Source: an uncultured virus (IMG/VR IMGVR_UViG_3300036715_001702) (lineage: Duplodnaviria > Heunggongvirae > Uroviricota > Caudoviricetes). Taken from it: a stretch of 64,000 nt of DNA. Of this stretch, positions 4,897 to 61,938 are shown one piece after another. The notes beneath the pieces are model-generated. The model made no database searches, was not told the origin of the DNA, and saw only the letters and a list, made by a program, of their open reading frames with translations. Positions within the stretch are counted from its first letter, which is position 1; the number at the start of each line of letters is the position of its first letter. The stretch is from IMG/VR virus record IMGVR_UViG_3300036715_001702; one strand, written 5' to 3'. The position numbers and the translations under genes were made by a program.

Positions 4897-5266
4897 AAAT
4901 ATATAAATATATTCCTAGCTTTGTAATTAAAAGAAATCATGAATGATTTCTAGAAACGTACTGGACTGATTATTGAGCCCACTATCATGTCAGATTGCTC
5001 TTTCACGAATACATTTGTTACACAAATGATCTTTTACATTTGTTTTACGTATGAATTTGTAAATTTCACACAACCAATACAGCAATGAACATTCATCAAT
5101 CAAACTAATAGTTAAAGTGGCTTTTTATTTCCTACCAGACATAAATGTCAGTCCTATAAGTTGTCATTTGTAAGCAAATGATTTAATCGATAGAGTATCT
5201 ATTAAATATAGTTGTTTTAGTTTAAATATTTTTATATAAATTAGTATAAATCTAGTTACTTAATAT
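4889..5266 (-). mobile_element. Non-autonomous IS element copy C (TnpB/omegaRNA-type remnant)
   Basis: Shares the left end and a ~70-nt internal block with copies A/B; its different right part reads ...DMIVGSIISPVRF*, resembling a TnpB C-terminal tail; right boundary approximate. Confidence 0.7.
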
Positions 5267-5384
5267 TATACGGAAAAATAAAAAAGTTTGAGATTTTAAC
5301 TCTACAAAATGAATTACGATGAAAATGATTTAGATGATTTATACAATAGTACTTGGATGGATTATGAAGAAAAATAAATAATTT

Positions 5385-10337: not shown

Positions 10338-11885
10338 ATGAATTTCAAGAATATCAAGATTGACTCTGTCCTACACGAAAACTTAAAATCCTTCTGCAAG
10401 GATAAAGGTGTTTTCATCCAGGAATGGATAGAGAATATTATTTCTGAAAAAATAAAAAATAAAGACAAAACAATGTTTAGTAAAACTATTAATGAATTTG
10501 ATTTCATTGCAATCCAACAAATTGCAGAGAATTTAAATTCTGTTTCTTATTTCAGCCCTTCTTTTGAAACTACAGAAATTCCGTATCATTTAGAAAATGA
10601 CGTTACTTATTCTGGTAGTATGTCAATGCATATGAATAAAATAGAATTAGATCTTAAAATTGAAACGTTTGAAAACGAAGAATTATTCAGATCCAAAATT
10701 TCAGAATATATTTTAGATCTTGTCAAACAAGCTCCATCTGATTTCGAAGATTTGATATATCTAGAACCAAAAAATGATGATTCTATCAAAAAGATAATTT
10801 ATAAAATCATAAGTTCTTGTAATAACATAGCTTTAAAATCAAGATTAGGTCCTGCTAATTATATTTTTATGAATCCAGAGATTTATAATATTATGATAGA
10901 CTTAAATAATAGAAATATTTTAGGATTCACAACTGAAAAATTAAATAGCGATAAAAAATATTCTTTTTTTATTACAAACTCAGTACTAGCTAATATGAAA
11001 GTCGTAGTAGATAGTTCTTTATCTCTTTTTGATATTTATATTTGTAGATTTTCTTCAGATGTGATCAGTTCAGGTTTGAAATTATTTTATAATTACTTAG
11101 GATGTAATTATGATGAAATTAATTACAGTTTAAGCCATATTAAAGATTATGAAAAGAATTTTTTTACAAAGATAAAATTTGAATATCTAGATAGATCTAA
11201 GAATGATATAGAATATACACACAATCTGCTTAAAAATTCTTTTTTCGATGTAGAATTTTCCACTGATAAAAATTTCAAAGTTGATATATTTTCAAGTGAT
11301 TTAAATACATTTAATATACATGATAATTTCAATCATGATAAAATAAAAAAATATTTTTTAGCTGAACAATTTTCTACATTTAGATCATTTTTATTAGAAC
11401 ATATAAAATTAATGGATGAACATAATTATGATGTTTCTCATATTAAAACTATAAAAGAAATTAATCTTTATATAGATGGAATTTTATCTGTATTTACAGA
11501 AGGAGACCAAACAGATTTTTATATCATTGTTAATGGTTATATATCTTCAAAATTATTTAATGACCATCCTAATTTTATTAAAAATTACAACAATTCTAAT
11601 CTTATATCTAATGTTTCCGTTCCATATCATACAGGTGTGTATATGTTTGAAAATAAAAACATACATATTTATTTTGACCCTTTTATGAAATATAATGATC
11701 ATAGGATCATTCTAATGGATAAAAAAATTAAAGCTAAGATATATAAAGAATCTCATCCTGATGATGAAACGTATGCTAATTATATGACATTAAATGAAAA
11801 TAAAGCTACATATCATTCTGGTATAAATTATGATATGTATGTAAAGGGATGCAAAGTGTTAAATTTTGAAAACTTAAACATATAA
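10338..11885 (+). CDS. Ribbon-helix-helix-like N-terminus fused to degenerate gp23 capsid-like segments
   Basis: KNIKIDSVLHENLKSFCKDKG; SCNNIALKSRLGPANYIFMNP; HIYFDPFM. Confidence 0.5.
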   Translation: MNFKNIKIDSVLHENLKSFCKDKGVFIQEWIENIISEKIKNKDKTMFSKTINEFDFIAIQQIAENLNSVSYFSPSFETTEIPYHLENDVTYSGSMSMHMNKIELDLKIETFENEELFRSKISEYILDLVKQAPSDFEDLIYLEPKNDDSIKKIIYKIISSCNNIALKSRLGPANYIFMNPEIYNIMIDLNNRNILGFTTEKLNSDKKYSFFITNSVLANMKVVVDSSLSLFDIYICRFSSDVISSGLKLFYNYLGCNYDEINYSLSHIKDYEKNFFTKIKFEYLDRSKNDIEYTHNLLKNSFFDVEFSTDKNFKVDIFSSDLNTFNIHDNFNHDKIKKYFLAEQFSTFRSFLLEHIKLMDEHNYDVSHIKTIKEINLYIDGILSVFTEGDQTDFYIIVNGYISSKLFNDHPNFIKNYNNSNLISNVSVPYHTGVYMFENKNIHIYFDPFMKYNDHRIILMDKKIKAKIYKESHPDDETYANYMTLNENKATYHSGINYDMYVKGCKVLNFENLNI

Positions 11886-12020
11886 AATTCAAAAATTTAA
11901 TAATGCTAGTGAATCTCTGCACTATGCTAATCTTAGCAACTAATCATGAAATAGAAACATATAATAAAAGAAAATTCTTACTAATTTCTAAACCTTACTC
12001 AGAATAAAATTTTAAACCAA

Positions 12021-12220
12021 TTGAACTTTTTTACATTTTTACATTATAAGTTAATAACGAAATGAAAAACTTAAAAAAACATATTAAATGTGAATGCACC
12101 GGTAGCGGTAGTTGCAGGAGAGGGATCCTAGCTTGGGATTTATATTTATATGTATTAAAGAAAAATTAAAATATACTAATATAGATGTCCTAGCAAAAAA
12201 GCTAGGGTATTTTTATTTTA
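12021..12220 (+). promoter_or_regulatory. Attenuator 1: promoter, leader ORF, antiterminator and terminator before the Glu/Asp/Gly/Pro tRNAs
   Basis: TTGAAC-N18-TATAAG; ATG AAA AAC at 12062; ttgggatttatatt can pair with aatatagatgtcctag; terminator gtcctagc-aaaaaa-gctagggt plus T-rich tail. Confidence 0.7.
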
Positions 12221-12242
12221 TTTGAATTTGTAAAAAATATAT

Positions 12243-12326
12243 GTTGCATTAGTCTAGCGGTCCAGGACATCAACCTTTCACGTTGATGAACGAAAGTTCT
12301 CGAGTGTTCGAATCCCTCATGCAATA
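12243..12326 (+). tRNA. tRNA-Glu(TTC) with long variable arm
   Basis: Acceptor GTTGCAT/ATGCAAT; tcaac-ctTTCac-gttga; extra gaac-gaaa-gttc arm; TTCGAAT. Confidence 0.88.
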
Positions 12327-12332
12327 CAAAAA

Positions 12333-12404
12333 GGTTTATTAGTGAAATGGTTATCATCCTACGTCGTCAACGTAGAGTTTACAGTTCAATTCTGTGATAA
12401 ACTA
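12333..12404 (+). tRNA. tRNA-Asp(GTC), atypical C33 and A73
   Basis: GGTTTAT/ATAAACT; ctacg-tcGTCaa-cgtag; TTCAATT. Confidence 0.8.
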
Positions 12405-12417
12405 CAAAAATAAAAAT

Positions 12418-12490
12418 GCGTAAATATATCAGTGGTAGATAGCTTTACTTCCAATAAAGAGGCTGGTGAGTTCGATCCTCCCTTTGCGCT
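12418..12490 (+). tRNA. tRNA-Gly(TCC)
   Basis: GCGTAAA/TTTGCGC, U73; cttta-ctTCCaa-taaag. Confidence 0.85.
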
Positions 12491-12500
12491 TTTTAAATAT

Positions 12501-12586
12501 CAGCAGGTCGCGTAGTTAGGCCTATCGCACTGGATTTGGGATCCAGTTCAGAAATGAAATCTTAGGTTTGAATCCTAATCTGCTGA
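12501..12586 (+). tRNA. tRNA-Pro(TGG) with long variable arm
   Basis: CAGCAGG/TCTGCTG; ctgga-ttTGGga-tccag; ttca-gaaa-tgaa arm. Confidence 0.88.
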
Positions 12587-12611
12587 CAATAAAATAAATA
12601 TTAAAACTGTT

Positions 12612-13082
12612 ATGGAAACTAATATAAGAATAAAAAACAGAACTAAAGAAATCGGAACCAGACATCGTAGAAAACTGAAAAAATATTCAGATAACTTCAA
12701 TCTGATGTTTGAATTCTTTTTAAAATCTTACAGATCAGGATTATTGACATTCAGTGGAAGCTATATCGATGTGAGATATGATAGCAATGGCACTTGTGCG
12801 AAAGAAACTTTTAGGCTTTACGAGGATGGATTTTTCAAGAATAAATCTATTATACATACATCGCAACCAAATATAGTTTATGCAGTACTAAATGGTAAAA
12901 AATCTTGGGGTCTTTGGCTGCAGAACTGGACTGATGGTATATCTGAATGTAACTTTACAAAAGATGAAATTCTTGATCAGTTCAAAGATATAAAAATTCC
13001 AGAATCTTTATTGAAGAACTTTGATGATATTATCTTGAAGAAGAAATTGATTAGATATGAAAGAGATTTTCCAAATTTTTAA
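12612..13082 (+). CDS. Hypothetical protein
   Basis: 156 aa ORF after tRNA cluster 1. Confidence 0.7.
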   Translation: METNIRIKNRTKEIGTRHRRKLKKYSDNFNLMFEFFLKSYRSGLLTFSGSYIDVRYDSNGTCAKETFRLYEDGFFKNKSIIHTSQPNIVYAVLNGKKSWGLWLQNWTDGISECNFTKDEILDQFKDIKIPESLLKNFDDIILKKKLIRYERDFPNF

Positions 13083-13586: not shown

Positions 13587-13760
13587 TTGAACTTTTTAAT
13601 ATATTTGCAGTATAAATTAGTAATGAAAAACATTTTTACATATCAACAGCAATATCAACAGCAACCTAAAGTTGAATGCTATTGTATTGTGTAAAAATAA
13701 ATAAAAATATTTAAACAAAATAAAAAAGCTCAACTCAAAAAGTTGAGCTTTTTTATTTTT
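13587..13760 (+). promoter_or_regulatory. Attenuator 2 before tRNA-Tyr, tRNA-Gln and tyrS
   Basis: TTGAAC-N18-TATAAA; agttgaatgct in the leader can pair with agctcaact; terminator aaaaaagctcaact-caaaa-agttgagctttttt. Confidence 0.85.
13623..13694 (+). CDS. Tyr/Gln-rich leader peptide MKNIFTYQQQYQQQPKVECYCIV
   Basis: tat caa cag caa x2; ATG 6 nt after the -10 box. Confidence 0.85.
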   Translation: MKNIFTYQQQYQQQPKVECYCIV

Positions 13761-13764
13761 GTAT

Positions 13765-13847
13765 GGATACGTAGGTAAGTGGTTAAAACAAGAGCTCTGT
13801 AAAAGCTCCGCCTGCGGGCTTCGAAAGTTCAAATCTTTCCGTATCCT
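13765..13847 (+). tRNA. tRNA-Tyr(GTA), U73
   Basis: GGATACG/CGTATCC; gagct-ctGTAaa-agctc; long variable arm. Confidence 0.9.
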
Positions 13848-13861
13848 CAAAATATAAACTC

Positions 13862-13932
13862 TGGTAGATCGTCTAAGGGGAGGACTCAAATTTTTGACAT
13901 TTGCAATGAAGGTCCGATTCCTTCTCTACCAA
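13862..13932 (+). tRNA. tRNA-Gln(TTG)
   Basis: TGGTAGA/TCTACCA; caaat-ttTTGac-atttg. Confidence 0.88.
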
Positions 13933-13950
13933 CAATTTAAAACAAATAAC

Positions 13951-15355
13951 ATGAAAACTGAAACATTTCCACCGAATTCAATAATACCCAAAGAAAAATC
14001 AAGGGTTAAATTTGGCATAGATCCAACATCAGATAAATTACATCTAGGACATCTTGTTCCATTGAGAATGGTTAAAACACTAAAAGAGATGGGCCATACT
14101 ATCGATATAGTTCTCGGCAGTTTTACAGCGATGCTTGGTGATCCTTCTGGCAAAGACAAAATGAGACCTATGCTTTCAGATACAGAAACAAAAGCTAATG
14201 CTGAATCTATCCTGAGCCAAGTCAAGATGATACTTGGCTCAGACATATATAGTAATGTAAAATATTGAAAAATTATCCAACATTTTTTACTTATTGCTTC
14301 ATAGACACCAGTAACCTAGCATCTCCACGATCTTTTAGAACAGTCTCTTGTTCAGGTTCGGGTTTACTCATCCCTACCGAATATTTCATATTCGCACTTT
14401 TCAGTGCGAAAAATGTATTTTTATTACATTTGTTTTACGTATGAATTTGTAAATTTCATACAACCAACATGTCAATGAACATTAATCAATCAATTAATCA
14501 ATTAATAATAGAGTATATATTATACAAAAATGTTTTAGTTTAAATATTTTTATATAAATTGATATAAAATCAGTTACTTAATATTATACATTTCAATCAT
14601 ACATGGTTCGAGAAGATGTCTATTCCTCAGATGATGGACATAGTTTCTAAATTTAATGTTAATCATCTGTTGTCAAGAGATTCGTTTCAAAACAGAATCA
14701 AAAATAATAACAGTATCGGAATCCATGAACTTCTTGTTCCGATCTTACAAGGTTTGGATTCTGTAGAACTTAAATCAGACATCGAAATCGGAGGAACTGA
14801 TCAACTTTTCAATTTTATGATCAGTAGAGAGATGCAAGAAAAATATGGAATGAAACCAGAGATATGCTTGTTTGCTCCTATTATCAATGGTTTGGATGGC
14901 AGAAAGATGTCTAAATCTTTGAACAATTGTATATTCATCAATGACTCTCCAGAAGATGTTTTCGGTAAAACAATGTCCATCTCTGATGAAACAATGCATG
15001 AATGGGTAGAAGTATTTCTGAAGGATCCAAAAAATTCACATGCTTTTGAACTCAAGAAAGAGTTAGCGTTCTCTATCACAGAAGAAATATGGGGAATATA
15101 TTAGCAATCAAAGCTAAAAATCATTTCAGTTCTGTGATTTCATCTAAAAATACACCAGATGATATTCAAGAGATAGAATTCTCTGACATTATATCCATAA
15201 TTTGTTTGATCAGGAAATCATCAAAGACCGCTGCTAGAAATTTATTGATTTCTAATGCTGTTAAAGTGAATGGAAATGTTGCAACTTTGGAAACTATATT
15301 GAAATCTGGAGATGTGATCAAAGTTGGTAAACTTGATCATGTTAAAATGATATAG
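13951..15355 (+). pseudogene. tyrS: Tyrosyl-tRNA synthetase interrupted by insertion element A and a later frameshift
   Basis: GIDPTSDKLHLGH, GDPSGK, GGTDQLFN, KMSKS, C-terminal S4-like domain; insertion at 14252-14584; frame change near 15100. Confidence 0.92.
14252..14584 (-). mobile_element. 333-bp non-autonomous IS element copy A
   Basis: Near-identical reverse complement of 62533-62865; TATA on both flanks; splits tyrS. Confidence 0.92.
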
Positions 15356-28315: not shown

Positions 28316-28397
28316 ATACTATATATTAAATTAAATTGAACTTTTTATATAATTCTAAGTAATATATAGAACTAACAACAACGATCTTTGACTTATT

Positions 28398-28793
28398 GGG
28401 GGTATACGTATCGACAGCGAAACCTGGATTATTAGGTCGCATGCATAGCTAGTTGGAAGCTATTAAAAATCCTAACAAAACAATAATTGGCAATATTACC
28501 AACGAAATCGGCAGCAAGGCTGATATTCTTCATGTTCTTAAAAACAACATGTTGACTGCTAAAACTCAAGAAGCAGAACTTGAGTTAGCAGCATAGGATC
28601 TGAACAATAGTAGGATTCTCCTGTAAATAATGCAAATGTCTTATCTTTTGGTCCATCAAATGGCGAAAGGAAAATAGATGACAACTGGCTATGAAAGTTG
28701 TAGGATTTGCCAAGTTATAAAACTTGGATAAAGCATGTAAATATCAATAAAACTTTTTGTCTGAACGCGGCTTCAAGGCCGCTACCTCCACCA
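28398..28793 (+). ncRNA. ssrA: tmRNA with ~35-aa tag
   Basis: GGGGGTA/TACCTCC-A-CCA with G3.U70; TCGAC in D region; T-arm; tag ORF 28489-28596 ends ELAA*. Confidence 0.92.
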
Positions 28794-40200: not shown

Positions 40201-43077
40201 TTAAGAAGAGCAAGCAATGCATCCATCAGGGCCTGAATCTAATGAGCAAACTATACCTTCATCAATAGTTTTTTCAGCATTGGTCAAATCAACACCCAAT
40301 GCTTTGTTAGCTGATGAATCTTTCTGAGTTCTTAGATAATACATTCCAGTTTTTAAACCTTTCTCCCATGCATAGAACAAAGCAGAAGTCAATTTGGCAG
40401 CATTAACAGAAGCAAAGAATATATTCATCGATTGTGTCTGACAGACAAAAGGCCCACGATCTGCTGCTAGATCTATCAGTGCTTTCTGCTTGATCTCCCA
40501 TATAGTTTTATAAACCTCTTTTAATTCTGTTGGTATCTCTGGAACATTTTGTACAGATCCTTCTCCTAAAATTAATTTATTTTTAAGATCGTTATTCCAT
40601 AATCCAAGATCTACTAGATCATTCACTAGATGCTTGTTCACAACTGTGAATTCACCAGATAAAGTATTTCTCTTGTAGATATTAGCAGTGAATGCTTCGA
40701 AACATTCATTATTTCCTAATATTTGAGAAGTGTTATGTGTAACTAAACCGTTATGGGTTAGAAATTCATGTACTTCTTGAACTTCAATATCCCATGTTGG
40801 TTTAAGTTCAGTTGATTTTTCAATTTTTGCTATTTTCATACCGATTCCGTCAATCGTTACAATATCATCATTTTCTACTAAATCTGAAGCACAGACCCAA
40901 ATTTGGTCATTGTTTATATTAATTAGAAATTTATGATTTTCTGTACATTCAAAGATAGATCCATCTTCCATATTAATCTTAATAGTTTCTTTTAAACCAT
41001 TATAGAATATTTTATCAGATGTTTTGATACCAAATCTTGTTTGAACTTGTATAGGTTCTTTGAAAAATAACCATTGTTGATCATTAGTTTTTTCTATTTC
41101 TTGCCAATTGATATCATTTTCAGTCATAATATCTTGATAAGATTTAGCACCATTTTCAGTTAATATCAAAGTATCACTTAAAAAACAACTAGCTGTTGGC
41201 ATTAATGCAACCAGTAGCGAATTTCTAACTCCGTGTTTCTTGATATTTTTTTTCAATGTTATAAAATCCCATCTTCCAGAAAGATCTTGTTCTGTCATTC
41301 CCCACATATCGTATTGTAAAATACCTTTCGATATAGGACTTCCTTCGTATGAATTATACGGACCGTGTTTTTTAGCCAATTCGTTTGAAGCTGTCAATGC
41401 TGCAAAGTAGATAGTTTCTGAAATTTCTTTATTCAATTTCTTAGCTTCTTCTGATTCGAAAGCAATTCCCATAATTGCAAATACATCAGCTAAACCTTGA
41501 ACTCCTAAACCTACAGGACGATGGTTCTCATTAGAGAACTTAGTCTCAGGAACTGGATAGAAATTATTATCGATCACTTTGTTCAAGTTGATAGTTGCTT
41601 GATGTGCAACTTTGAATAATAGTTCGTGGTCGAATTCAGCTTTCTTTTTCTTCTTATCTTTTCCTTTAGTGATTGTTAAAAACATAGGAAGTGCTAATGA
41701 AGCCAGGTTGCAAACCGCAATCTCGTTGATATTTTTGCCAGGATGGTTTTCTTTTTGCCATTTTGTAATTCCCGTAGATTGTAATATTTCCGAGCATAAA
41801 TTACTACTTCTGATTTGGCCAATATTGGATTGATTGGATTTTATATTCGCGGCATCTTTGTAAATAATATAAGGAGTTCCTCCTTCGATTTGAGCTTCGA
41901 TTATTTTTGCCCATAAATCTCTAGCTTGAATTCTCTTACCCTTTCCTTCATTTTCATATCTGATAAAATGATCTTCAAATTCTTTTCCGTATGTTTCATT
42001 CAATTCAGGAACTTCATCTGGAGAAAATAATGTCCAGTGAGATTCTTCTTTGACACGTTGCATGAATAAATCTGGAACCATCAAAGCCAAGAATAAATCT
42101 CTAGCTCTCATTTCTTCTTTTCCTTGATTTTTTCTCAACTCTAAAAATTCGTAAATGTCTGAATGCCAAGGCTCTAACCAGGCAGAAATGCTCCCTTTTC
42201 TGCGGCCTCCACCTTGATCGATTGCTCTTGCAATCTCATTCATGATCTTTAAGAAAGGAATTAATCCATTCGAATGTCCATTTGTCCCTTTGATATATGC
42301 TCCTTTACCTCTGATATTATTCATATTGATACCGATACCACCAGCATTTTTTGAAATTTGTGCAATATCGCCAAAAGATTTAAACATTCCTTCAATTGAA
42401 TCCCCTTCATTCTGAATCAAAAAGCAAGAACTCATCTGCGGACGTTTTGTTCCTGCATTGAATAATGTGGGTGTAGCGTGAGTAAAGAATTTCTGTGACA
42501 TCAAATCGTAAGTCTTGATTGCTTCGTTAACGTCATCTTTCCAAATTCCACATGAAACACGCATCAACATCTGTTGTGGTGTTTCTGCGATCACTTTATC
42601 AATTTTTAATAAGTAAGATCTTTCTAATGTTTTGAAACCGAAATAATCGTAAGAAAAATCTCGGTCGTGTATGATGGCTTCTTCTAATTTTTTGCTGTTC
42701 TTCTTGATAAATTCGTATACATCATCAGCTATCATTCCAGCTTTTTCTCCTGTTTTAGGATTTACATAATTGTATAAATTGGTTGTAACTTCCAAGAAGC
42801 TCTTTGGTGTGTTCTTATGCAGATTTGATAATGCAATCCTAGCAGCAAGAATTGCGTAGTCTGGATGCGTTCCTGTCATCGCAGCAGCTGTTTCTGATGC
42901 TAAACTATCAAGCTCTGATGTTTTAACACCATCATATAATCCTTGAATAACTTTTGCAGCTACCGAAATAGGATCCACAAAATCTGAATTTAATCCATAA
43001 GTCTGTTTTTTGATTCTAGCTACAATCTTGTCCAATTTTACTGTCTCTTTTCGACCGTCTCTTTTTAGTACTTCCAT
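40201..43077 (-). CDS. nrdA: Class Ia ribonucleotide reductase alpha subunit with intein
   Basis: ATP cone VLKRDG, SSCF, SNLCSEI, VCNLAS, MYYLR, C-terminal CIAC. Confidence 0.97.
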   Translation of the reverse strand: MEVLKRDGRKETVKLDKIVARIKKQTYGLNSDFVDPISVAAKVIQGLYDGVKTSELDSLASETAAAMTGTHPDYAILAARIALSNLHKNTPKSFLEVTTNLYNYVNPKTGEKAGMIADDVYEFIKKNSKKLEEAIIHDRDFSYDYFGFKTLERSYLLKIDKVIAETPQQMLMRVSCGIWKDDVNEAIKTYDLMSQKFFTHATPTLFNAGTKRPQMSSCFLIQNEGDSIEGMFKSFGDIAQISKNAGGIGINMNNIRGKGAYIKGTNGHSNGLIPFLKIMNEIARAIDQGGGRRKGSISAWLEPWHSDIYEFLELRKNQGKEEMRARDLFLALMVPDLFMQRVKEESHWTLFSPDEVPELNETYGKEFEDHFIRYENEGKGKRIQARDLWAKIIEAQIEGGTPYIIYKDAANIKSNQSNIGQIRSSNLCSEILQSTGITKWQKENHPGKNINEIAVCNLASLALPMFLTITKGKDKKKKKAEFDHELLFKVAHQATINLNKVIDNNFYPVPETKFSNENHRPVGLGVQGLADVFAIMGIAFESEEAKKLNKEISETIYFAALTASNELAKKHGPYNSYEGSPISKGILQYDMWGMTEQDLSGRWDFITLKKNIKKHGVRNSLLVALMPTASCFLSDTLILTENGAKSYQDIMTENDINWQEIEKTNDQQWLFFKEPIQVQTRFGIKTSDKIFYNGLKETIKINMEDGSIFECTENHKFLININNDQIWVCASDLVENDDIVTIDGIGMKIAKIEKSTELKPTWDIEVQEVHEFLTHNGLVTHNTSQILGNNECFEAFTANIYKRNTLSGEFTVVNKHLVNDLVDLGLWNNDLKNKLILGEGSVQNVPEIPTELKEVYKTIWEIKQKALIDLAADRGPFVCQTQSMNIFFASVNAAKLTSALFYAWEKGLKTGMYYLRTQKDSSANKALGVDLTNAEKTIDEGIVCSLDSGPDGCIACSS
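40732..41187 (-). other. 152-aa mini-intein in NrdA
   Basis: MPTAS|CFLSDT...LVTHN|TSQILG; no LAGLIDADG domain. Confidence 0.92.
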
Positions 43078-43101
43078 ATATTGTTTTTTAGTTTTTTGTT
43101 T

Positions 43102-44070
43102 TTAAAAATCTTCATCCATAGAGAATGAATTCTCCTCTTTTGATTTACCTACTCCGGCTTTATTATAATCAGCAACTCTTTTCTCAAAGAAATTAGTTTT
43201 ATTTTGTAATGCTATATTCTGCATAAAATCGAAAGGATTAGATGTATTGTAGATAGGATCGCATTTCAAAGCTCTCAATAACTGATCTGTCACATATTCC
43301 AAATATTCAGACATCAGTTTTGAGTTCATACCTATCAAACTAACAGGCAATGATTCCAAAATAAATTCCTTTTCGATCACTAATGCTGATTCGATGATTT
43401 CTCTGATTCGTTCTTTTGGTAATTTGTTCTCTATATGATTATTGTATAAATGTACAGCAAAATCACAATGTAAACTTTCATCACGAGAAATAAGTTCATT
43501 GCTGAAACTTAAACCTGGCATCAAACCTCTCTTTTTCAACCAGAAGATCGAACAGAAAGATCCTGAGAAGAATATACCTTCAACTGCCGCAAATGCTATC
43601 AGACGTTCAGCAAATGAATCAGACTCTACCCATTTCAATGCCCATTCTCCTTTCTTTTTGACTGCTGGAATAGTCTCCAGTGCGTTCAACAGATGATGTT
43701 TCTCTTCATTGTTTTTGATATAAGTGTCGATTAACAATGAATACGTCTCAGAGTGTACATTCTCTATAGCGATCTGAAAGCCGTAAAAGAATTTAGCTTC
43801 TGTGTATTGGACTTCTCTTACAAAATTATCAGCAATATTCTCATTCACTATACCATCAGAAGCTGCAAAGAACGCTAACACATTTTTTATAAAATGTCTT
43901 TCATTATCATTCAATTTATCATTCCAGTCTTCAAGATCTTGATACAAGTCTATCTCTTCTGCTGTCCAAGATGATGTTTGAGCTTTTTTATAGAAGTCCC
44001 AAATGTCTGGATGTTCTATCGGGAACAGGACAAACCTGCCATCGTTCTTTGTTAAGATTTTTTCGGTCAT
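43102..44070 (-). CDS. nrdB: Ribonucleotide reductase beta subunit
   Basis: [23 protein letters not shown]. Confidence 0.97.
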
Positions 44071-44250
44071 TTTTATTGTAAGTTTATGGTATTAAATATG
44101 TTCTTTATATATCTAGAAAAACAAAAAAGTTAACAACTCTCTGTTAACTTTATTTTTATATTTTTTATTTATGGTTGCTATTTTTACAACTGTTTAGTAC
44201 CCAATAAACTATGTTTTTAGGTCATTATTCAGGCCTGTTCCAGTTAAAGA

Positions 44251-45234
44251 TTATAAGTCTTCAGGATTTTCATAATCAGCCAAAGATTTTTCATAACACG
44301 TTGCAATTTTTAAAATTGTATAATTTTGAGCATCTACGTATTTTTTAAAAGATTCTAATGATGTTCCTTTTTCATTAAAAACGAATTGTACAGAATTCAA
44401 TTCATCCATACTGATCAATGGATTTAAAACTTTGGTAGTTTCTAATATGAAATCTTTTATCCAATTTCTTAGTTCTATAATAGCATTACAGAATGTCTTT
44501 TCTTGTACAATAAAGTTTGATATATTGTTATTTATAAATGTGTTTTTGTCTTCTAGTGTAGAATGATTGTATTCGTATACATCTTTTTTAAATTTTTCAA
44601 TATATTTCTTATAAAGTTCTTCACTTTTTTCATTAGATAATTTTATAGAATATTCATCATCAGTATAGTACCATTCAGGAATAAAAGTGCTAGATTTTAA
44701 TTTCTCAATACTTAATTTGAAATCATCAATATTATATTGATTAAGATCGTTCTTTTTAATTTTTTCTATAACTACATTTTTATAAAAGTTGTAGTTTTTT
44801 AAACAATCTGTAGTATATTCTTTCTCTTTGAATATTCTTTCATAAAAACTGACACCTTCTCCAAAAATATCTAAAGGTTTAAAGAATTCTATAATAGACT
44901 TAGGATCTCCTATTGTCAATTTAGCTTCCATTTTGTGATATGATATATTAATAAATCCATAAACCAATGCGAAATTTGCAAAATCCAATAATCTAAAATT
45001 CAATGGCGACGGATTTATATTTAACAAATCCATGGCATTATGAATAGCTTGAACTGTTTTATCATCACCACTCAATTTAAAAATAGAATTATCAAAATCT
45101 ATATGAAAGCATTTTTCCGTAAAGAAGTCAAGGTGCGATTTGTACAAATCGTCTTTATGGTGTTTATCCATAGATAAAGCTTTATCTGACATGAAAGCAT
45201 ATCTGTGTTCTTTTGTTAAATCTTGCAAAATCAT
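44251..45234 (-). CDS. Hypothetical protein
   Basis: Likely start MILQDL at 45234. Confidence 0.65.
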   Translation of the reverse strand: MILQDLTKEHRYAFMSDKALSMDKHHKDDLYKSHLDFFTEKCFHIDFDNSIFKLSGDDKTVQAIHNAMDLLNINPSPLNFRLLDFANFALVYGFINISYHKMEAKLTIGDPKSIIEFFKPLDIFGEGVSFYERIFKEKEYTTDCLKNYNFYKNVVIEKIKKNDLNQYNIDDFKLSIEKLKSSTFIPEWYYTDDEYSIKLSNEKSEELYKKYIEKFKKDVYEYNHSTLEDKNTFINNNISNFIVQEKTFCNAIIELRNWIKDFILETTKVLNPLISMDELNSVQFVFNEKGTSLESFKKYVDAQNYTILKIATCYEKSLADYENPEDL

Positions 45235-45256
45235 ATATTTATATTTTATTTTTTTT

Positions 45257-45832
45257 TTATACGAAGTCAATATCATCCAATTGTTTACCAACATTGCGAT
45301 ACTCTTCCAATTCTTTGATGATGACCATGGCTTCTCTCTTATCAAGCATCTTGAACATGCTCGCAAGATTATCTGAAAAATATTGAGAGTATTCTACGAA
45401 CAATTCACATATAGTGAAATTATAAGATTTCAAACTCTCTTTTATTATTTGAAAATTTATATTGAAATCAGCAGGTCCTGGTTTTCTTCTGCTCTTAGAA
45501 GGATCTATACCTATTTTATTTTTGATAATCTTGTACACTTCATCTACTAATTTCTGTTTTCTCAGATGATCTTGACTCTGTCTTGACTCTGTCCAATCAC
45601 TGCTAGTCGGATCTAAATCTATACCAGATGTAATAGTTTCGTTGATGTAAGATTCTTCTTGATCTTTAGGATCTTTCTTACCTTTGAAAATACTATCGTG
45701 TTTCAAACTATGCTTCTTGTATTCTTTATGTTTGGAATCTTTCTTCTCGAAAGTTTCATCCAAAAATTCCAGATTTGAATCTATGTTATCAGAGTTATAT
45801 TCTGAACTAGCTTTCTTTTTAAACCTTGCCAT
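45257..45832 (-). CDS. Hypothetical protein
   Basis: 191 aa ORF downstream of the helicase. Confidence 0.7.
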   Translation of the reverse strand: MARFKKKASSEYNSDNIDSNLEFLDETFEKKDSKHKEYKKHSLKHDSIFKGKKDPKDQEESYINETITSGIDLDPTSSDWTESRQSQDHLRKQKLVDEVYKIIKNKIGIDPSKSRRKPGPADFNINFQIIKESLKSYNFTICELFVEYSQYFSDNLASMFKMLDKREAMVIIKELEEYRNVGKQLDDIDFV

Positions 45833-45877
45833 GAAGATGTATACGTTTTATTTTTATATTCAAATCAGAGAAAAAGT

Positions 45878-47236
45878 TTAAGCCTCATCTGGAAAACGAT
45901 CATTGACTATTTTCAAGAATGTAGGATCTAAGTCGAACATGATCTGTTCTTTTGAAAAATCTCCATCTCTCAACTTTAATGCTTTCAGTCTATATCTGTT
46001 TACTTTTTTCATTTCAGGATTTCTGATGATGCCCCATAAAGTCTCAGATGTCTCAACTATAGCTTTTGATTCTGGTACATTGTTCATCGAAACATCGTTT
46101 GCTCCCCATCCTTCTTTTGCCATCTGCACTGCTGTGATCAGTGGACAGTTATTTTTAAAAGCTATAGCTCTCAAACCTTCTGCAAGATGTTTACCTCTGA
46201 GATATAAATTAGCCTCTAGATGCAATCCTTTTTCTGGAGCCATGATCTGTATATAGTCGCAGAAGATTACGTCAGGAACAAAATTCAAATGTTCTTTCAG
46301 TTTTGATAAATATGCGTCAAAATCACTTAGTGTTGCGGTTCCTGCTGCATATTCTTTTACTCTGATATCTCCAAGCTCAGTCCTAGAAAGAGATCCACTG
46401 TTTTTTGCATACCCTTCATTCAACCAATCTATGCGACTCTGCATATATTCAGAATCTTTACTTTTCTGATCGTATTCAGTAATAGGTATTTCTAATCTCA
46501 TTGTTCCCAATCTCTTCATTGTTTTTGCTTGGGACATTTCCAATGTAAAATAAACAACATTGAAACCAGCATTGGCCGCGTTTACTGCCATGTTCTGCAT
46601 CCACAACGATTTACCATTTCCAGTTTCTCCCATTATCACATGTAGAGTTTTTTTATCCCATCCTCCTGCAAGGATCTGGTCCATACAAGTAAAACCTGTA
46701 GTTACTTTCTCTCCATATGAATCCTGTATATGAGCATTAGGATCATTGAAACTTGCACCTAGATCTATATCATTAGTCCTGATCATGCACGCTTCGTTTA
46801 TCAATGATTTCAGAGCACCAGCTCTTGATTGCACTTCTTCTAATGATTCAATATTATTGATATCTCTTATAGATTCAATCGCTTCAGAAAGACTACTCTT
46901 CATCGCATTATTAAGTCTCCATGATTCTAAACGATTTTCGATCCACGTTTGATCATTTGCATAAGAATCTAGATCCACTTTCAGCATTGAAAGCAAAGCA
47001 TCGTTACTGATCTTGCTATTCAAATCTGCTAATTTTACTAGTTCTACAACTCTTTTAGGTTTCAGTATCTCCTTGGTTGTCATATCTCTGTATTCGTTTT
47101 TACATATGTTGAAAACGAATTGAATATCAGGATTTTTGAAGTAGTGCGTCTCTACTGCATTGTACAATCTTGGATTTTTCAAGATGTACGCAAAGAACAT
47201 ACGTTCGAATGATACTGTGGTACTTAATGTGCTCAT
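45878..47236 (-). CDS. DnaB/gp41-like replicative helicase
   Basis: GETGNGKS, TLEMS, DYIQIM, TAVQ, ESKAI, KLRDG. Confidence 0.9.
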   Translation of the reverse strand: MSTLSTTVSFERMFFAYILKNPRLYNAVETHYFKNPDIQFVFNICKNEYRDMTTKEILKPKRVVELVKLADLNSKISNDALLSMLKVDLDSYANDQTWIENRLESWRLNNAMKSSLSEAIESIRDINNIESLEEVQSRAGALKSLINEACMIRTNDIDLGASFNDPNAHIQDSYGEKVTTGFTCMDQILAGGWDKKTLHVIMGETGNGKSLWMQNMAVNAANAGFNVVYFTLEMSQAKTMKRLGTMRLEIPITEYDQKSKDSEYMQSRIDWLNEGYAKNSGSLSRTELGDIRVKEYAAGTATLSDFDAYLSKLKEHLNFVPDVIFCDYIQIMAPEKGLHLEANLYLRGKHLAEGLRAIAFKNNCPLITAVQMAKEGWGANDVSMNNVPESKAIVETSETLWGIIRNPEMKKVNRYRLKALKLRDGDFSKEQIMFDLDPTFLKIVNDRFPDEA

Positions 47237-47304
47237 GGCTTTTTAATTATTTTTAATTGCTTTTTATTGTCGTTCTAATAATATGATTTAAAATGGTGAA
47301 AGTT

Positions 47305-47679
47305 TTAAAATGCTAAATTTTCATCATTGAATTGATCCATGTCTGTAATGTCCAACAATACCAATTTATGCCATTCTTGTGGAATATCACCATGAGCTAT
47401 GATCAACATGTTGTTTGGATATATCTCATAATAACAATCATTCAAATCATATCTGAACTTCTGGGTTGATTTATGTTCGGATATACGATAATCTATATAA
47501 GTCACAGTATCAATCTCATGGAATTCATCAAATACTTTGATGAATTTTTGACCATATCGTATACCGTTGACGCATTTCAAAACATTTCCATTTTTCAGAT
47601 AATGAAGATCTATCTTACATGTTTTTGTATAAGTCTTTTCAGAAGGAGATCTTTTCAGAAGCCATTTTTTATCTACCAT
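47305..47679 (-). CDS. Hypothetical protein
   Basis: 124 aa ORF. Confidence 0.6.
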   Translation of the reverse strand: MVDKKWLLKRSPSEKTYTKTCKIDLHYLKNGNVLKCVNGIRYGQKFIKVFDEFHEIDTVTYIDYRISEHKSTQKFRYDLNDCYYEIYPNNMLIIAHGDIPQEWHKLVLLDITDMDQFNDENLAF

Positions 47680-48062
47680 TCTATTTTCGATTTGATGATT
47701 TCGAATATGTTATTTCTGAATACATATCTCCATATATCTCCATCTTCTCCAACCCATTGTATATAAGAACCTTCTTCTACATAAGGTGCAATTTGTTTTA
47801 ATAGAATCATTTCTTCTCCCAATTTTTCCCAAACAAAATCTATAGTGTCCAAATGTCCTGTTGTGCTATCAAAATCTATTTCGAAACCAAACACTTCGAA
47901 AAGATCTTCTAAATTATTTGTCGCTTCTATGTCTTCTTTTTCGACATATGATATTTTTTTATCGTATTTTATCAAAAAATCTTTTGTGTAAATGAAAGAG
48001 TCTTCTAAATTATCCTCTTTAATTAAGAATTTTGTTTCTGAAATACGTGCTGAATAACCCAT
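47673..48062 (-). CDS. Hypothetical phage protein
   Basis: IAPYVEEGSYIQWVGEDG. Confidence 0.7.
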   Translation of the reverse strand: MGYSARISETKFLIKEDNLEDSFIYTKDFLIKYDKKISYVEKEDIEATNNLEDLFEVFGFEIDFDSTTGHLDTIDFVWEKLGEEMILLKQIAPYVEEGSYIQWVGEDGDIWRYVFRNNIFEIIKSKIEW

Positions 48063-48153
48063 AATTTTTTTTTATATTTATTTGTATTATTTCTATTAAA
48101 AAACTGCAAACAAGTTTAAATAAAAAAATCCTCAACATGTGAGGATTTTTATA

Positions 48154-48405
48154 TTAGTCTACCAATTTAAGATCATGTATCAGTTTTGTTTTGAACACAT
48201 CTAAAAGTTCTTCGAACTTCGTATCATCAGGATTATCGAATATCGATAATTTGATTTGATTTTTGAATTTTTCATATTCTGATGTTTCCATTTTCGATGT
48301 AACCATGATATCGTATGAAACATCCATCAGGGCTTTAAAAAGATGCATATCACTAGGTTCTAATCTGTTGTATGCAGCTATGACTATTTTCAGATTATTT
48401 GTCAT
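48154..48405 (-). CDS. Hypothetical protein
   Basis: 83 aa ORF coupled to the recombinase C-part. Confidence 0.55.
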   Translation of the reverse strand: MTNNLKIVIAAYNRLEPSDMHLFKALMDVSYDIMVTSKMETSEYEKFKNQIKLSIFDNPDDTKFEELLDVFKTKLIHDLKLVD

Positions 48406-49562
48406 TATTCGAATAATTTTTCTGCATCAACATCATCAGCATTACCATGCTCTTCAAACTCAGCAGAAATCTTGTCTAATTCTTCTTCCACTGTTTGTAA
48501 TTCGTCCATATCTCTGTATTTGAAATAATCTTCCAAGATCGGAGCCATTGCGTTCAACACTTCAGGTGTAAAAACTTCTTTTGTGTTCAATCTTGCAGTC
48601 GGAACTGATTTATCCAAATGACGAATATACCAAAAGTTTCCACCTGGATTGATAGAAGTTTTCTTGCCTATAATTTCACCTGTAGATGTATCAACATCAT
48701 CTTCGATGACAGGTTTACCTTTAGCAATTCCGATTACATCGAAGTTTTCTGGAGTACACCAGAATTCTAAACCAGAATAAGGATTTGAACCTTTGTTGAA
48801 CGAAAGTTCGAATTTGATCTTCTTAGGTTTAGCTAAACGATTCTTCTGTGTCTTTGCTGATACTATGATTCCAGATTGTCCAAGATCTTGTTCATCTTCA
48901 TTGCCATCTTTTAATTTAGCTTTGGAAAGCATTAGAATAATAGAAGCATTATAGATAGCTCCTGTATTATGTGAAACAATACCATCTTCTAAGATATAAT
49001 GAGATGCATTTTCAATACAGATATCGTGAAGCTCATATTTTCCTTCTAATTTTTTTACTGAAACAACTGTTGTATCTTTACTTATTTCTGGTTCATCAAA
49101 CATGTTTTGTTCTGTTGTCACATATTGATTATCAAATAATAATACTTTTTGACCTTCTTTCATTTTTGTTACATAAGTCCAACCAGCTTTATGATCCCAG
49201 TTTGTAGAAGTTAAAAATCTATGATCATCTGAACATTTGTAAACTGAACCATTAGCGAATGTGATTTCGTAAGCTTCTTTTTGAAAGACAACTTTTTCAG
49301 CAACTATCTCAGCACCCATCAATGTTTCTACCCAGTCTCCTTGTTTGATATCAGAGATCTGTTTATAAGATCCATCAGACATTAATACTTTGGCTTCAGC
49401 ATTTAAACATCCACCTGAAAAAATCTCTCTTGGGAACATTTCCTGTGTATTATGAGCCACCACACCATTATCTAAGATGTAATGATGTACATCTTTGACA
49501 GTGATATCATGAACTGTTTGTTTTTCACCGATTGTGACACTTTTTATTTTTAGTTGTTTCAT
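48405..49562 (-). CDS. uvsX: UvsX/RecA C-terminal part: split-intein C fragment (49449-49562), 13-aa extein, cis mini-intein (48966-49409), C-extein
   Basis: MKQLKIKS...VAHN|TQEMFPREIFSGG|CLNAEA...VSHN|TGAIYNASIILML...KNRLAKP. Confidence 0.9.
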   Translation of the reverse strand: MKQLKIKSVTIGEKQTVHDITVKDVHHYILDNGVVAHNTQEMFPREIFSGGCLNAEAKVLMSDGSYKQISDIKQGDWVETLMGAEIVAEKVVFQKEAYEITFANGSVYKCSDDHRFLTSTNWDHKAGWTYVTKMKEGQKVLLFDNQYVTTEQNMFDEPEISKDTTVVSVKKLEGKYELHDICIENASHYILEDGIVSHNTGAIYNASIILMLSKAKLKDGNEDEQDLGQSGIIVSAKTQKNRLAKPKKIKFELSFNKGSNPYSGLEFWCTPENFDVIGIAKGKPVIEDDVDTSTGEIIGKKTSINPGGNFWYIRHLDKSVPTARLNTKEVFTPEVLNAMAPILEDYFKYRDMDELQTVEEELDKISAEFEEHGNADDVDAEKLFE

Positions 49563-49583
49563 ATTGTTTGATTATTTGATTTA

Positions 49584-51029
49584 TTATATTGTTATGTTTC
49601 TATTTTGTTTTAGTTTTAACCATTTATTATAAACTTTATGATCTATGATCATGAATTCAAATAACAGTCCCATTTTCTCACATGCTTCTTTTTTCATCAT
49701 ATTTATTTCATAATCATATTTAAAAGTGTATTCTGATTTGACTTCTATTATTTTGTTCTCGGATTTGATATAGAAATCAGGAAAATACACATGTTCTTTA
49801 TCATCTATAAAGTAAGAAATTTTAGATGTATGATATGTTATATCAAAATTATTTAAAACAATATCGTCTAAAGAGTATTTTTTTAATAATATTTCAAAAA
49901 ATGTATAATCTTCATATCCCTGGAAATTATATTTTATATCGTTTATAATATATGTTTTAAATTTAAAACTTGTGTTAGTTATAATTGATTTAAATGGAAT
50001 TTTATATTTTTCTATATTTTCTATTCTATCATATAGATCTGTAGATTGTAAAACATATTCTATTCCATAATTTTTAAATAATGTTGCTCTAGACTTCTTT
50101 TGGATTTCGATATTATTCATTGGAGAATTACCACCATACAATTCATTGCAAGTATCCATCCCTTTCTGTTTTATGATTTCATTTTGGGATGGTCGATCGG
50201 TTCCATAATTCTCTTTAAATGTTTCTGTGATCTTATCTTGCATACCTTCAATCTTGAAATTATGATCTACCCCATATCTTTCTATAAGAGTTTCTTTTGA
50301 TTTTTCATGTGTTTTGGCTAATTCAAATGGAGAAACATAACCATATTTCTCTATCATTTTCTGTTTGTATTCATCAGTTTGAGTATAAGATTCGACTCCA
50401 TATTTTTCTAATGAATTCTTTTTAGATTTGGCTGTTCTTTTTTCGTAGTATTCGTCGGTTCTAGATTTGGCAATATCTATCATTTTTTGTTTTGTAATTT
50501 TAGATACAGGTTTTTGACGAATTAAAGATCTGCATTCATTAGATCCACATGTTTTGATATATTCCAATTTATACCAATATAGATCCTTTGTATTACAATA
50601 AGGACATTTGATATTTTCTAATATATTATTTTTGATATGATACAATCTCTGTAATAATACTGTATCTTCATTTAAAAAAGAAGTTTTGTTTTTAATGAAA
50701 TTTAAAAGCTCTTTGTCTTTTTTAACCAATGTAGCTATTGTAGAATTTTCGCTACCTAATATTCTACATTTATGATTATCACAATGTTCTAAATATTTAC
50801 CTGATCTGCTGATCCACTTTGAATTGTTATGATTACAAAATATACAAATGATGGATTTCTTTATATCATTTTTAATATGATGATACCTTTGAGATATTTC
50901 AGCATTATTATTCAAAAATGAAGTTTTATCCCATATGTAATTTTTTAAATCTTGATTATATTTTATTCTCTTAGCTATAGCAAAGCTTGGAGAATTTAAA
51001 ATCATATCATCATATTCTATATTATTCAT
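49584..51029 (-). CDS. Putative free-standing homing endonuclease
   Basis: Zn-finger repeats, EKYGV repeats, C-terminal YFPDFY...IIEVKS nuclease motif; lies between the split-intein halves. Confidence 0.8.
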   Translation of the reverse strand: MNNIEYDDMILNSPSFAIAKRIKYNQDLKNYIWDKTSFLNNNAEISQRYHHIKNDIKKSIICIFCNHNNSKWISRSGKYLEHCDNHKCRILGSENSTIATLVKKDKELLNFIKNKTSFLNEDTVLLQRLYHIKNNILENIKCPYCNTKDLYWYKLEYIKTCGSNECRSLIRQKPVSKITKQKMIDIAKSRTDEYYEKRTAKSKKNSLEKYGVESYTQTDEYKQKMIEKYGYVSPFELAKTHEKSKETLIERYGVDHNFKIEGMQDKITETFKENYGTDRPSQNEIIKQKGMDTCNELYGGNSPMNNIEIQKKSRATLFKNYGIEYVLQSTDLYDRIENIEKYKIPFKSIITNTSFKFKTYIINDIKYNFQGYEDYTFFEILLKKYSLDDIVLNNFDITYHTSKISYFIDDKEHVYFPDFYIKSENKIIEVKSEYTFKYDYEINMMKKEACEKMGLLFEFMIIDHKVYNKWLKLKQNRNITI

Positions 51030-51070
51030 AAAGTTGAAAATATGGTTTGACTCAACAAACCATATTTTTA

Positions 51071-60907: not shown

Positions 60908-61132
60908 ATGGCAACTTCATCAACTAAAAAAGCAGCTCCTAAAAAAGCTGCAGCGAAAAAGACTGTCGCAGCGAAAGCTCCAGCAAAAAAAGCAACAACT
61001 AAAGCTGCACCAGCTAAAAAAGCTGCACCAGCTAAAACTACAACAGCTAAAGTTGCACCAGCAAAATCTGCTGCTAAGAAAGCTGTAGTGAAGAAATCAG
61101 CTCCTAAAAAAGAAGCTGCTCGTCCTCAGTAG
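60908..61132 (+). CDS. Histone H1-like Lys/Ala/Pro-rich protein
   Basis: AAPAKK repeats; palindromic terminator at ~61160-61190. Confidence 0.8.
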   Translation: MATSSTKKAAPKKAAAKKTVAAKAPAKKATTKAAPAKKAAPAKTTTAKVAPAKSAAKKAVVKKSAPKKEAARPQ

Positions 61133-61213: not shown

Positions 61214-61390
61214 TTGAACTTTTGTATATTTGTAAAGTATAATATAGTAATGAAAAACAATTCAACGATATTGACCTTATGTATGATGCTGATTCTGAAG
61301 ATTGGTACTGGGCTATATATTTGTTAAATGTTAGATAAACATATTTTAATAATAAAAGCTCAGCTCGTAAGGTTGAGTTTTTTTATTTTT
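61214..61390 (+). promoter_or_regulatory. Attenuator 3 before the Leu/Leu/Met/Ile/Cys/Thr tRNAs and leuS
   Basis: TTGAAC-N18-TATAAT; ctgggct in the leader can pair with agctcag; terminator agctcagct-cgtaa-ggttgagtt plus T run. Confidence 0.85.
61250..61327 (+). CDS. Leader peptide MKNNSTILTLCMMLILKIGTGLYIC
   Basis: 11 consecutive T/I/L/C/M codons; ATG 6 nt after the -10 box. Confidence 0.85.
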   Translation: MKNNSTILTLCMMLILKIGTGLYIC

Positions 61391-61394
61391 ATTT

Positions 61395-61468
61395 GCCTCG
61401 TTAGTAGAGTTGGTTCATACTTCAGATTTAGAATCTGAAGATCGCTGGGTCGGAACCGGCACGAGGTA
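61395..61468 (+). tRNA. tRNA-Leu(TAG), short variable loop, atypical T-loop
   Basis: GCCTCGT/ACGAGGT; tcaga-ttTAGaa-tctga; T-loop GTCGGAA. Confidence 0.82.
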
Positions 61469-61475
61469 CAAAAAT

Positions 61476-61548
61476 AGTGCATTGATGCAGTTGGTTGACA
61501 TATTGGACTTAAAATCCAAGTACATCGGATCGTTCCAGATATGCACTA
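61476..61548 (+). tRNA. tRNA-Leu(TAA), short variable loop, atypical T-loop
   Basis: AGTGCAT/ATGCACT; ttgga-ctTAAaa-tccaa; T-loop ATCGTTC. Confidence 0.78.
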
Positions 61549-61560
61549 CAAAATATAAAT

Positions 61561-61632
61561 TGCCATGTAGCTCAGTGATAGAGCAATTCCCTCATAAGGA
61601 ATAGGTCTCGAGTTTAATCCTCGACATGGCGA
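61561..61632 (+). tRNA. tRNA(CAT): elongator Met or Ile2
   Basis: TGCCATG/CATGGCG; attcc-ctCATaa-ggaat. Confidence 0.85.
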
Positions 61633-61642
61633 CAACTAATAT

Positions 61643-61715
61643 AGTCTTATATGTCAGTGGTTAGACGGTCAAACTGATACTTTGAAGGTCGTGTGTTCGA
61701 ATCACACTAAGACTA
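61643..61715 (+). tRNA. tRNA-Ile(GAT)
   Basis: AGTCTTA/TAAGACT; tcaaa-ctGATac-tttga; TTCGAAT. Confidence 0.9.
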
Positions 61716-61726
61716 CTTTTAAAAAT

Positions 61727-61798
61727 GCTCATATGGCCGAGTGACTAGGTCACGATCTGCAAAATCGTTGTACGTTGGTTTGATCCCAACTATGAGCT
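61727..61798 (+). tRNA. tRNA-Cys(GCA)
   Basis: GCTCATA/TATGAGC, U73; acgat-ctGCAaa-atcgt. Confidence 0.88.
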
Positions 61799-61810
61799 CA
61801 AAATAAAAAT

Positions 61811-61882
61811 GCCGATATAGTTCAGTGTTAGAATGTCACATTTGTAATGTGAATGTCCTGGGTTAGATTCCTAGTATCGGCT
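61811..61882 (+). tRNA. tRNA-Thr(TGT)
   Basis: GCCGATA/TATCGGC; tcaca-ttTGTaa-tgtga. Confidence 0.88.
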
Positions 61883-61938
61883 CCGAATACTGATAGTGGC
61901 TCAGATTTTTTCATACATAATAAAAATATTAATTATGT

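Follow-up and report, generated by a model that had tools for sequence, protein, structure and literature searches.

A ribosome-sensed attenuator probably stands before four phage tRNA genes, and its original leader, of an Ala/Val/Gly type, has probably been put out of frame by a genuine extra A (probability about 0.6). The copy in this window is best seen as a mutant that arose in nature and lost its proper tuning. Sequence comparison strongly supports a class of leader-terminator units in related large phages, in which the leaders match the tRNAs downstream. The unit described here, attenuator 1, lies in a window of 64,000 nucleotides (64 kb, G+C 30%), the first part of a 71,852-bp virus record. 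The window holds 12 tRNA genes, which are grouped in three clusters. All three clusters and the tmRNA gene are preceded by predicted promoters consisting of TTGAAC, an 18-nt spacer and a TATAAT-like box.

The first-pass annotation had described hairpins, a terminator, a 35-aa ORF and an A7 run at 12021-12220. All of them were found as claimed, and the build is that of an attenuator (Table 1). A short ORF is located between the predicted promoter and the tRNA genes, a terminator precedes the first tRNA gene, and a predicted antiterminator, mutually exclusive with the terminator, overlaps both the ORF and the terminator. The strands of the 1:2 hairpin are ATCCTA (12125-30) and TGGGAT (12134-39). 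The terminator hairpin at 12183-12212 has a predicted energy of -13.9 kcal/mol and is adjoined by its T-tract; tRNA-Glu begins after a gap of 30 nt. The region is more stably folded than shuffled sequences (z -3.1, 2/200). The antiterminator duplex alone is borderline at this unit (-11.8 versus -8.4 +/- 1.9, 51/1000 shuffles). Control codons for the four tRNAs are wanting in the open frame, where the cognate share of 0.24 equals the chance level and a single codon of the sensing zone is readable. Two of the tRNA genes, tRNA-Glu (12243-12327) and tRNA-Pro (12501-12587), measure 85-87 nt and carry long variable arms.

Table 1. Features of attenuator 1 and related elements (positions in the window).
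Feature	Position	Strand	Basis or remark
Predicted promoter, TTGAAC-18 nt-TATAAG	12021..12050	+	motif shared with other leaders
Leader ORF as the DNA stands, 35 aa	12062..12169	+	ATG 12062, TAA 12167-69
A7 run	12073..12079	+	one base longer than syntenic leaders between ATG and N-I codons
Family-like control frame with Val/Ala/Pro/Gly/Glu codons, TAG 12129-31 and in-frame GTG 12090	12075..12131	+	family comparison
Continuation of the shifted frame past TAG to TAA 12156-58	12132..12158	+	stop 24-25 nt before the terminator, at the family median; alignment
Small 1:2 hairpin	12125..12139	+	predicted -6.4 kcal/mol
Predicted antiterminator, 12131-45 paired with 12179-94	12131..12194	+	-15.6 kcal/mol with inner helix
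Intrinsic terminator hairpin and T-tract	12183..12223	+	predicted fold
tRNA-Glu(TTC), Asp(GTC), Gly(TCC), Pro(TGG)	12243..12587	+	ARAGORN; Rfam 44-52 bits
156-aa ORF, recurring passenger of large-phage tRNA clusters	12612..13082	+	no Pfam/PHROG family
Sister unit 2: intact leader (ATG 13623, Y/Q run), terminator, tRNA-Tyr, tRNA-Gln, then tyrS	13587..13933	+	cognate share 0.89
Sister unit 3: intact leader (ATG 61250), terminator, tRNA-Leu, Leu, Met, Ile, Cys, Thr	61214..61884	+	cognate share 0.91
tmRNA gene	28336-28793		promoter motif as in the three tRNA leaders
Contigs over A7	X1 11784-12581; X3 11925-12240; X4 11924-12907		X2 without cover

With the 156-aa ORF as bait, loci of the family were gathered from collections of viral, metagenome and genome sequences as well as from related records taken whole. 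The final set comprised 157 loci and 736 tRNA clusters, with overlapping loci counted twice. A terminator within about 110 nt was detected for 98 of the 736 clusters, and 96 of these 98 had an ATG-initiated ORF of 14-48 codons. Leader ORFs were chosen by position only, and every family leader was defined with an ATG start. The 70 distinct leader peptides were reduced to 54 by a collapse at 60% identity, and to 53 by removal of the focal unit; the two intact sister units of the window are among the 53. Other searches, with a promoter-plus-start pattern (23 loci), DUF6378 (80) and tyrS (10), yielded 11 tRNA clusters and no leader. Viral contigs contained no match to exact DNA patterns taken from the leader or tRNA-Pro.

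Leader peptides of the family correspond to the tRNAs they precede. The cognate residue share of the leader core was 0.603, compared with 0.229 +/- 0.025 in permuted pairings (0/10,000, n=53). Other frames of the same leader DNA gave 0.164, and the in-frame value was higher in 50/53. With one unit for each of 29 module types the shares were 0.61 versus 0.22 (0/2000 in all 50 draws). Five of the 53 units had a share of no more than 0.25; in three of them the position rule had picked the wrong ORF. The wrong picks were retained in the cognate-share, permutation, off-frame and module-type tests, and were dropped, together with the window's own units where stated, from the frame-profile, ribosome-masking, codon-usage and antiterminator tests. 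The antiterminator duplex was more stable than in shuffled leaders (mean z -2.06; p<=0.05 in 25/44). Ribosome footprints were masked in an equilibrium proxy run without a shuffled control; in 38/43 units a footprint at the stop favoured the terminator more than one over cognate codons (median 4.1 kcal/mol). Control codons from four-codon boxes ended in T 16 times (73 expected) and in G 49 times (11 expected). The preference for G- and C-ending over T-ending codons is opposite to the usage of phage genes. Sister unit 3 showed little switching in a simple sequestration model; a class I synthetase gene 3' of it was read by eye as leuS. One contig with three leader units (L251) is filed in a Methanobacterium MAG and is probably a mis-binned phage.

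The hairpin of attenuator 1 might also be an ordinary terminator behind an untranslated or irrelevant small ORF, the tRNAs being made through leaky read-through, a phage antiterminator or another promoter. Neither frame of the unit is enriched for Glu/Asp/Gly/Pro, its antiterminator duplex is the borderline one given above, and most tRNA clusters lack a detected terminator. This explanation is improbable, however, as the promoter aims into the leader, the hairpin ends just 30 nt before tRNA-Glu, and codon matching is frame-specific in the sister units as well as in the 50/53 relatives.

The frame one base over from 12075 reads KNILNVNAPVAVVAGEGS* and contains CCG, GGA, GAG and GGA. That this shifted frame, favoured in the first-pass annotation, is the family-like leader was supported by the family comparison with respect to the N-I motif, the codons and the Ala-rich core. 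N6-I7, the commonest motif of the family (18/41 leaders), is present in it. The profile score over residues 6-10 is +5.7 for the shifted and -6.1 for the assembled frame (family median 2.2); on the same N-terminal profile, off-frame family DNA has a median of -0.7 and a 97.5th percentile of 7.8. Four zone codons (CCG, GGA, GAG, GGA) are readable by the anticodons of the cluster in the shifted frame versus one (GAA) in the assembled frame. Codons ending in G or A are a further family-like trait of the shifted frame. By a codon score, the shifted frame falls at the 78th percentile of true frames and the assembled one at the 2nd; this is weak evidence, as the same score chose the wrong frame for both sister leaders.

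The proposed fit of the shifted frame to Pro, Gly and Glu stands for the four readable codons but not for composition. The share of Glu/Asp/Gly/Pro residues is 0.25, compared with 0.24 in the assembled ORF, whose match to these tRNAs is as weak as had been stated. An Asp codon is absent from the shifted frame. Adding Val and Ala raises its share to 0.69. Its best-scoring relatives are L135, from a Val-Gly-Ala cluster, and L114, from an Ile-Gly-Gly-Gly-Ala cluster, both of which stand immediately before the same 156-aa ORF as here. In an alignment with L133, L135 and L114, modest evidence from four AT-rich sequences, the window is one base longer before an invariant AACATA, and its TAA at 12156-58 coincides with the stops of L133 and L135. 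The shifted frame is likely, judged from sequence, the family-like leader frame, an Ala/Val/Gly-type sensor that was frameshifted in nature.

Alternatively, the 35-codon frame may be the current leader, re-tuned to Glu, Gly and Asp codons by an adaptive slip. It is open from its ATG, provides GAA, GGT, GGT, GGG and GAT, and has a stop that is predicted to favour termination. The proposal is quite improbable, with a cognate share at chance level, GGT codons that anticodon TCC does not read under standard wobble and that have the T-ending form avoided in the family, a GAT past the switch point, and a stop closer to the stem core than in any of 29 family units.

The distance from stop to stem core ranges from 16 to 31 nt in the family (median 26, n=29). 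It amounts to 14 nt for the assembled ORF, 52 nt for the TAG at 12129-31 and 25 nt for the later TAA at 12156-58. From the end of strand 2 to this TAA there are 17 nt, which equals the family median. Stops lie 15-30 nt before the terminator in 47/48 units under a second rule that favours no distance inside its 8-60 window, and a distance of about 51 nt, as for the TAG, occurs in 1/48. The TAG may represent a second lesion because family stops occupy the position of the later TAA. The spacing suggests an ancestral leader of 31 codons ending at that TAA. A folding proxy points the other way or is neutral on this ancestor: with the ribosome at positions up to 12117 it gives a termination bias of -3 to -6 kcal/mol, compared with -9.0 kcal/mol at the TAG, -8.0 at the later TAA and -8.6 at the assembled stop, and in the folding model strand 3 is freed best with the ribosome around the TAG. 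Recoding of TAG as a sense codon was rejected. TAG terminates 15/80 ORFs of at least 100 aa, and the coding density rises under recoding from 0.79 to 0.82, a gain like that of the TGA control. TAG therefore serves this genome as an ordinary stop, and recoding cannot extend the shifted frame.

The A7 run had been suspected to be an assembly indel. This was not supported by contigs of three of the four high-share runs (X1, X3 and X4), which cross the site without a mismatch or a gap. The evidence consists of contigs rather than raw reads, at a depth of 4-6, and contigs drop rare alleles. The four runs may belong to a single campaign, and the source sample may be among them; in four low-share runs no listed piece covers the A run. 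An assembly slip is an unlikely origin of A7. An assembly or sequencing error with an intact leader in the phage itself is hardly credible, given three separately assembled runs with the same seven bases, even though A7 is a homopolymer and a second one-base break, in tyrS, falls outside the contig cover. Of the homopolymer indels elsewhere in the window that were mentioned earlier, one was seen, the tyrS break at a G run near 15090.

With A7 genuine, the shifted frame could still be in use, entered by a ribosome slip on the Lys codons, a polymerase slip on the A run or a restart at the GTG at 12090. The TAG between hairpin strands 1 and 2 would then be a working stop, and Gly, Glu and Pro would still be sensed. 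The four readable codons fit the anticodons present and are placed at the predicted switch point (12117-19), predicted termination is strongest, and strand 3 most fully freed, with a ribosome on the TAG, the GTG has an A-rich context, and the RNA switch is predicted to be intact. Continued use is doubtful, however, as an A7 or longer within the first 30 nt is found in 0/51 family leaders, which are distant ones, the stop spacing of the TAG is almost without parallel, and the family leaders are all defined with ATG. Slippage on A7 is expected to be rare. There is a small chance that large phages organise their tRNA supply in closed-feedback modules, each gated by its own set of control codons, and that A7 is a working part here, serving either as a slip site that would open the Gly/Glu/Pro codons upon stalls at Lys codons or as a reversible A6/A7 toggle that would change the tRNA shortages sensed.

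The preferred reading, a leader put out of frame by a real extra base, agrees with the neighbourhood of the 156-aa ORF. Homologues of this ORF are 44-60% identical, apart from one at 90% (L136). At least two Ala occur in the core of 24/26 leaders found at the 156-aa ORF, and 17/26 of this Ala-rich-leader set have tRNA-Ala in their own unit; some syntenic Ala-rich leaders are without a detected tRNA-Ala. The shifted frame holds three Ala. A tRNA-Ala is found within -1500/+700 nt of the ORF at 38/56 non-redundant loci and a tRNA-Val at 12/56. The suggested loss of tRNA-Ala is backed by this synteny and by the Ala-rich leader cores, and loss of tRNA-Val finds weak support. ARAGORN and an Rfam search revealed no tRNA-Ala in the 64-kb window and, beyond the four genes of the cluster, no tRNA remnant up to 13760, of tRNA-Ala, tRNA-Val or any other kind; low-threshold ARAGORN extras elsewhere in the window were counted as noise. 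Either gene may lie elsewhere, as the record comprises 72 kb of an incomplete genome. The 90% relative, L136, begins downstream of the leader. In L136 (187-260), the 3' portion of tRNA-Pro is missing and the acceptor stem of tRNA-Asp differs. These changes may indicate a fast turnover of the tRNA cluster of attenuator 1. An attempt to assign the tRNA whose end opens L136 gave no identity.

The 156-aa ORF has a confident predicted fold (pLDDT 88). Searches gave no clear structural match (Foldseek best E 0.9, VIA best Z 5.3, no usable hit in Atlas); such weak model-based matches indicate neither a new fold nor a function. Ala-rich leaders at the ORF even without a detected tRNA-Ala hint at an Ala-linked role. 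No relative was retrieved for the upstream 515-aa gene.

Leader attenuation of tRNA operons is inferred here by analogy. In the intact design, a ribosome would trail RNA polymerase along the leader. With ample charged tRNA it would reach the stop and cover the 5' strand of the antiterminator, so that the terminator forms. Slow decoding of the control codons would hold the ribosome upstream of strand 2, so that the antiterminator could form and transcription would run on into the tRNA genes. The attenuator would act as a negative feedback of the tRNAs on their own supply. In the natural copy, the start at 12062 would place mostly Cys, Ser, Gly (GGT), Thr and Arg codons in the sensing zone. Because ribosomes from 12062 would read these other codons, the switch is predicted to be mis-tuned. 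It should still flip, answering a general slowing but tuned to the wrong tRNAs. As a reconstructed order of events, the slip was probably unselected after tRNA-Ala had left the cluster.

Enterobacterial multivalent attenuators (ilvGMEDA and thr; also trp, his and leu) combine leader codons for several amino acids with 1:2, 2:3 and 3:4 hairpins and a terminator. The phage unit resembles ilvGMEDA and thr in its short multi-amino-acid leader, its alternative hairpins and an intrinsic terminator before the regulated genes. It differs in its targets, phage tRNA genes instead of biosynthetic enzymes, and in the frameshift of this copy. A classical amino-acid operon attenuator (trp, his, thr, ilv, phe) does not apply, as tRNA genes follow. 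No Rfam leader family was detected at gathering score; a single Thr_leader match of 29 bits (cut-off 55) fell on the terminator of unit 2. Ribosome-sensed control of the charging side of tRNA is represented by the pheM-pheST attenuator of E. coli. His leaders precede hisS paralogues in bacilli, as described in PMC2965389. Units 2 and 3, which are followed by synthetase genes, resemble these bacillar leaders and pheM-pheST in control of the charging side. The first regulated products of the phage units are, in contrast to both, the tRNAs themselves. T-box riboswitches bind uncharged tRNA directly and set a terminator or antiterminator by tRNA charging. The charging-dependent choice is shared, whereas the signal in the phage units would be the codon content of an ORF. 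Rfam gave no T-box match at gathering score or at E<=5.

The phage that carries the unit shares tRNAs, synthetases and tmRNA with the huge-phage sets (Al-Shayeb 2020, PMC7162821). The main text of that paper contains 0 occurrences of 'attenuat' or 'leader'. No description of attenuation of tRNA genes was found in the literature searched, which was covered at the level of listings and abstracts and mostly outside subscription journals. The new aspect is a classical-type leader attenuator aimed at phage tRNA genes, of which this copy lacks the cognate codons in its open frame. Candidate reasons for phages to carry tRNAs are codon bias, starvation and the need to replace tRNAs that host defences have cleaved. 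If tRNA genes are activated when their own codons are decoded slowly, the tRNAs would form an on-demand repair kit, and each leader would state which shortages the phage watches. The natural mutant likely records the lost tRNA-Ala and is a case of a leader losing its match to the tRNA cluster. The class matters more than the broken copy, which alone is a detail.

Further genes of the window encode ribonucleotide reductase, RecA, DnaB, ligase and pieces of tRNA synthetases. The window is probably part of a very large phage genome, because homologues of the 156-aa ORF are located in phage records of 642 and 735 kb and in viral contigs of up to 369 kb. From their sizes, the two records presumably belong to the PMC7162821 set, for which Bacteroidetes hosts are predicted for genomes >634 kb. 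TAnnTTTG precedes 10/67 genes of the window (shuffle mean 2.7, shuffle maximum 10), and Shine-Dalgarno words precede 1/67. These counts and the published host prediction weakly point to a host among the Bacteroidota. The ATGs of the sister leaders (13587-13623, 61214-61250) are positioned 6 nt 3' of the predicted -10 box, and the mRNAs could be leaderless; an overlapping TAnnTTTG motif offers an alternative possible start.

The tyrS gene (13951-15355) near unit 2 is split by an insert of roughly 346 bp (about 14245-14590). An inverted copy of the insert, 97% identical, occupies 62527-62872, and there are partial copies near 5034-5271. Relatives from three runs are continuous across the insert site. 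Insert and frame break in tyrS, together with the truncated tRNA-Pro of L136, fit relaxed selection nearby. Intein matches at 40201-52075 fall in the large subunit of ribonucleotide reductase and in the recA region; two of the pieces have a DUF7487 ORF between them. Immediately 5' of unit 3, a 74-aa histone-like ORF rich in Lys, Ala and Pro is found at 60908-61132.
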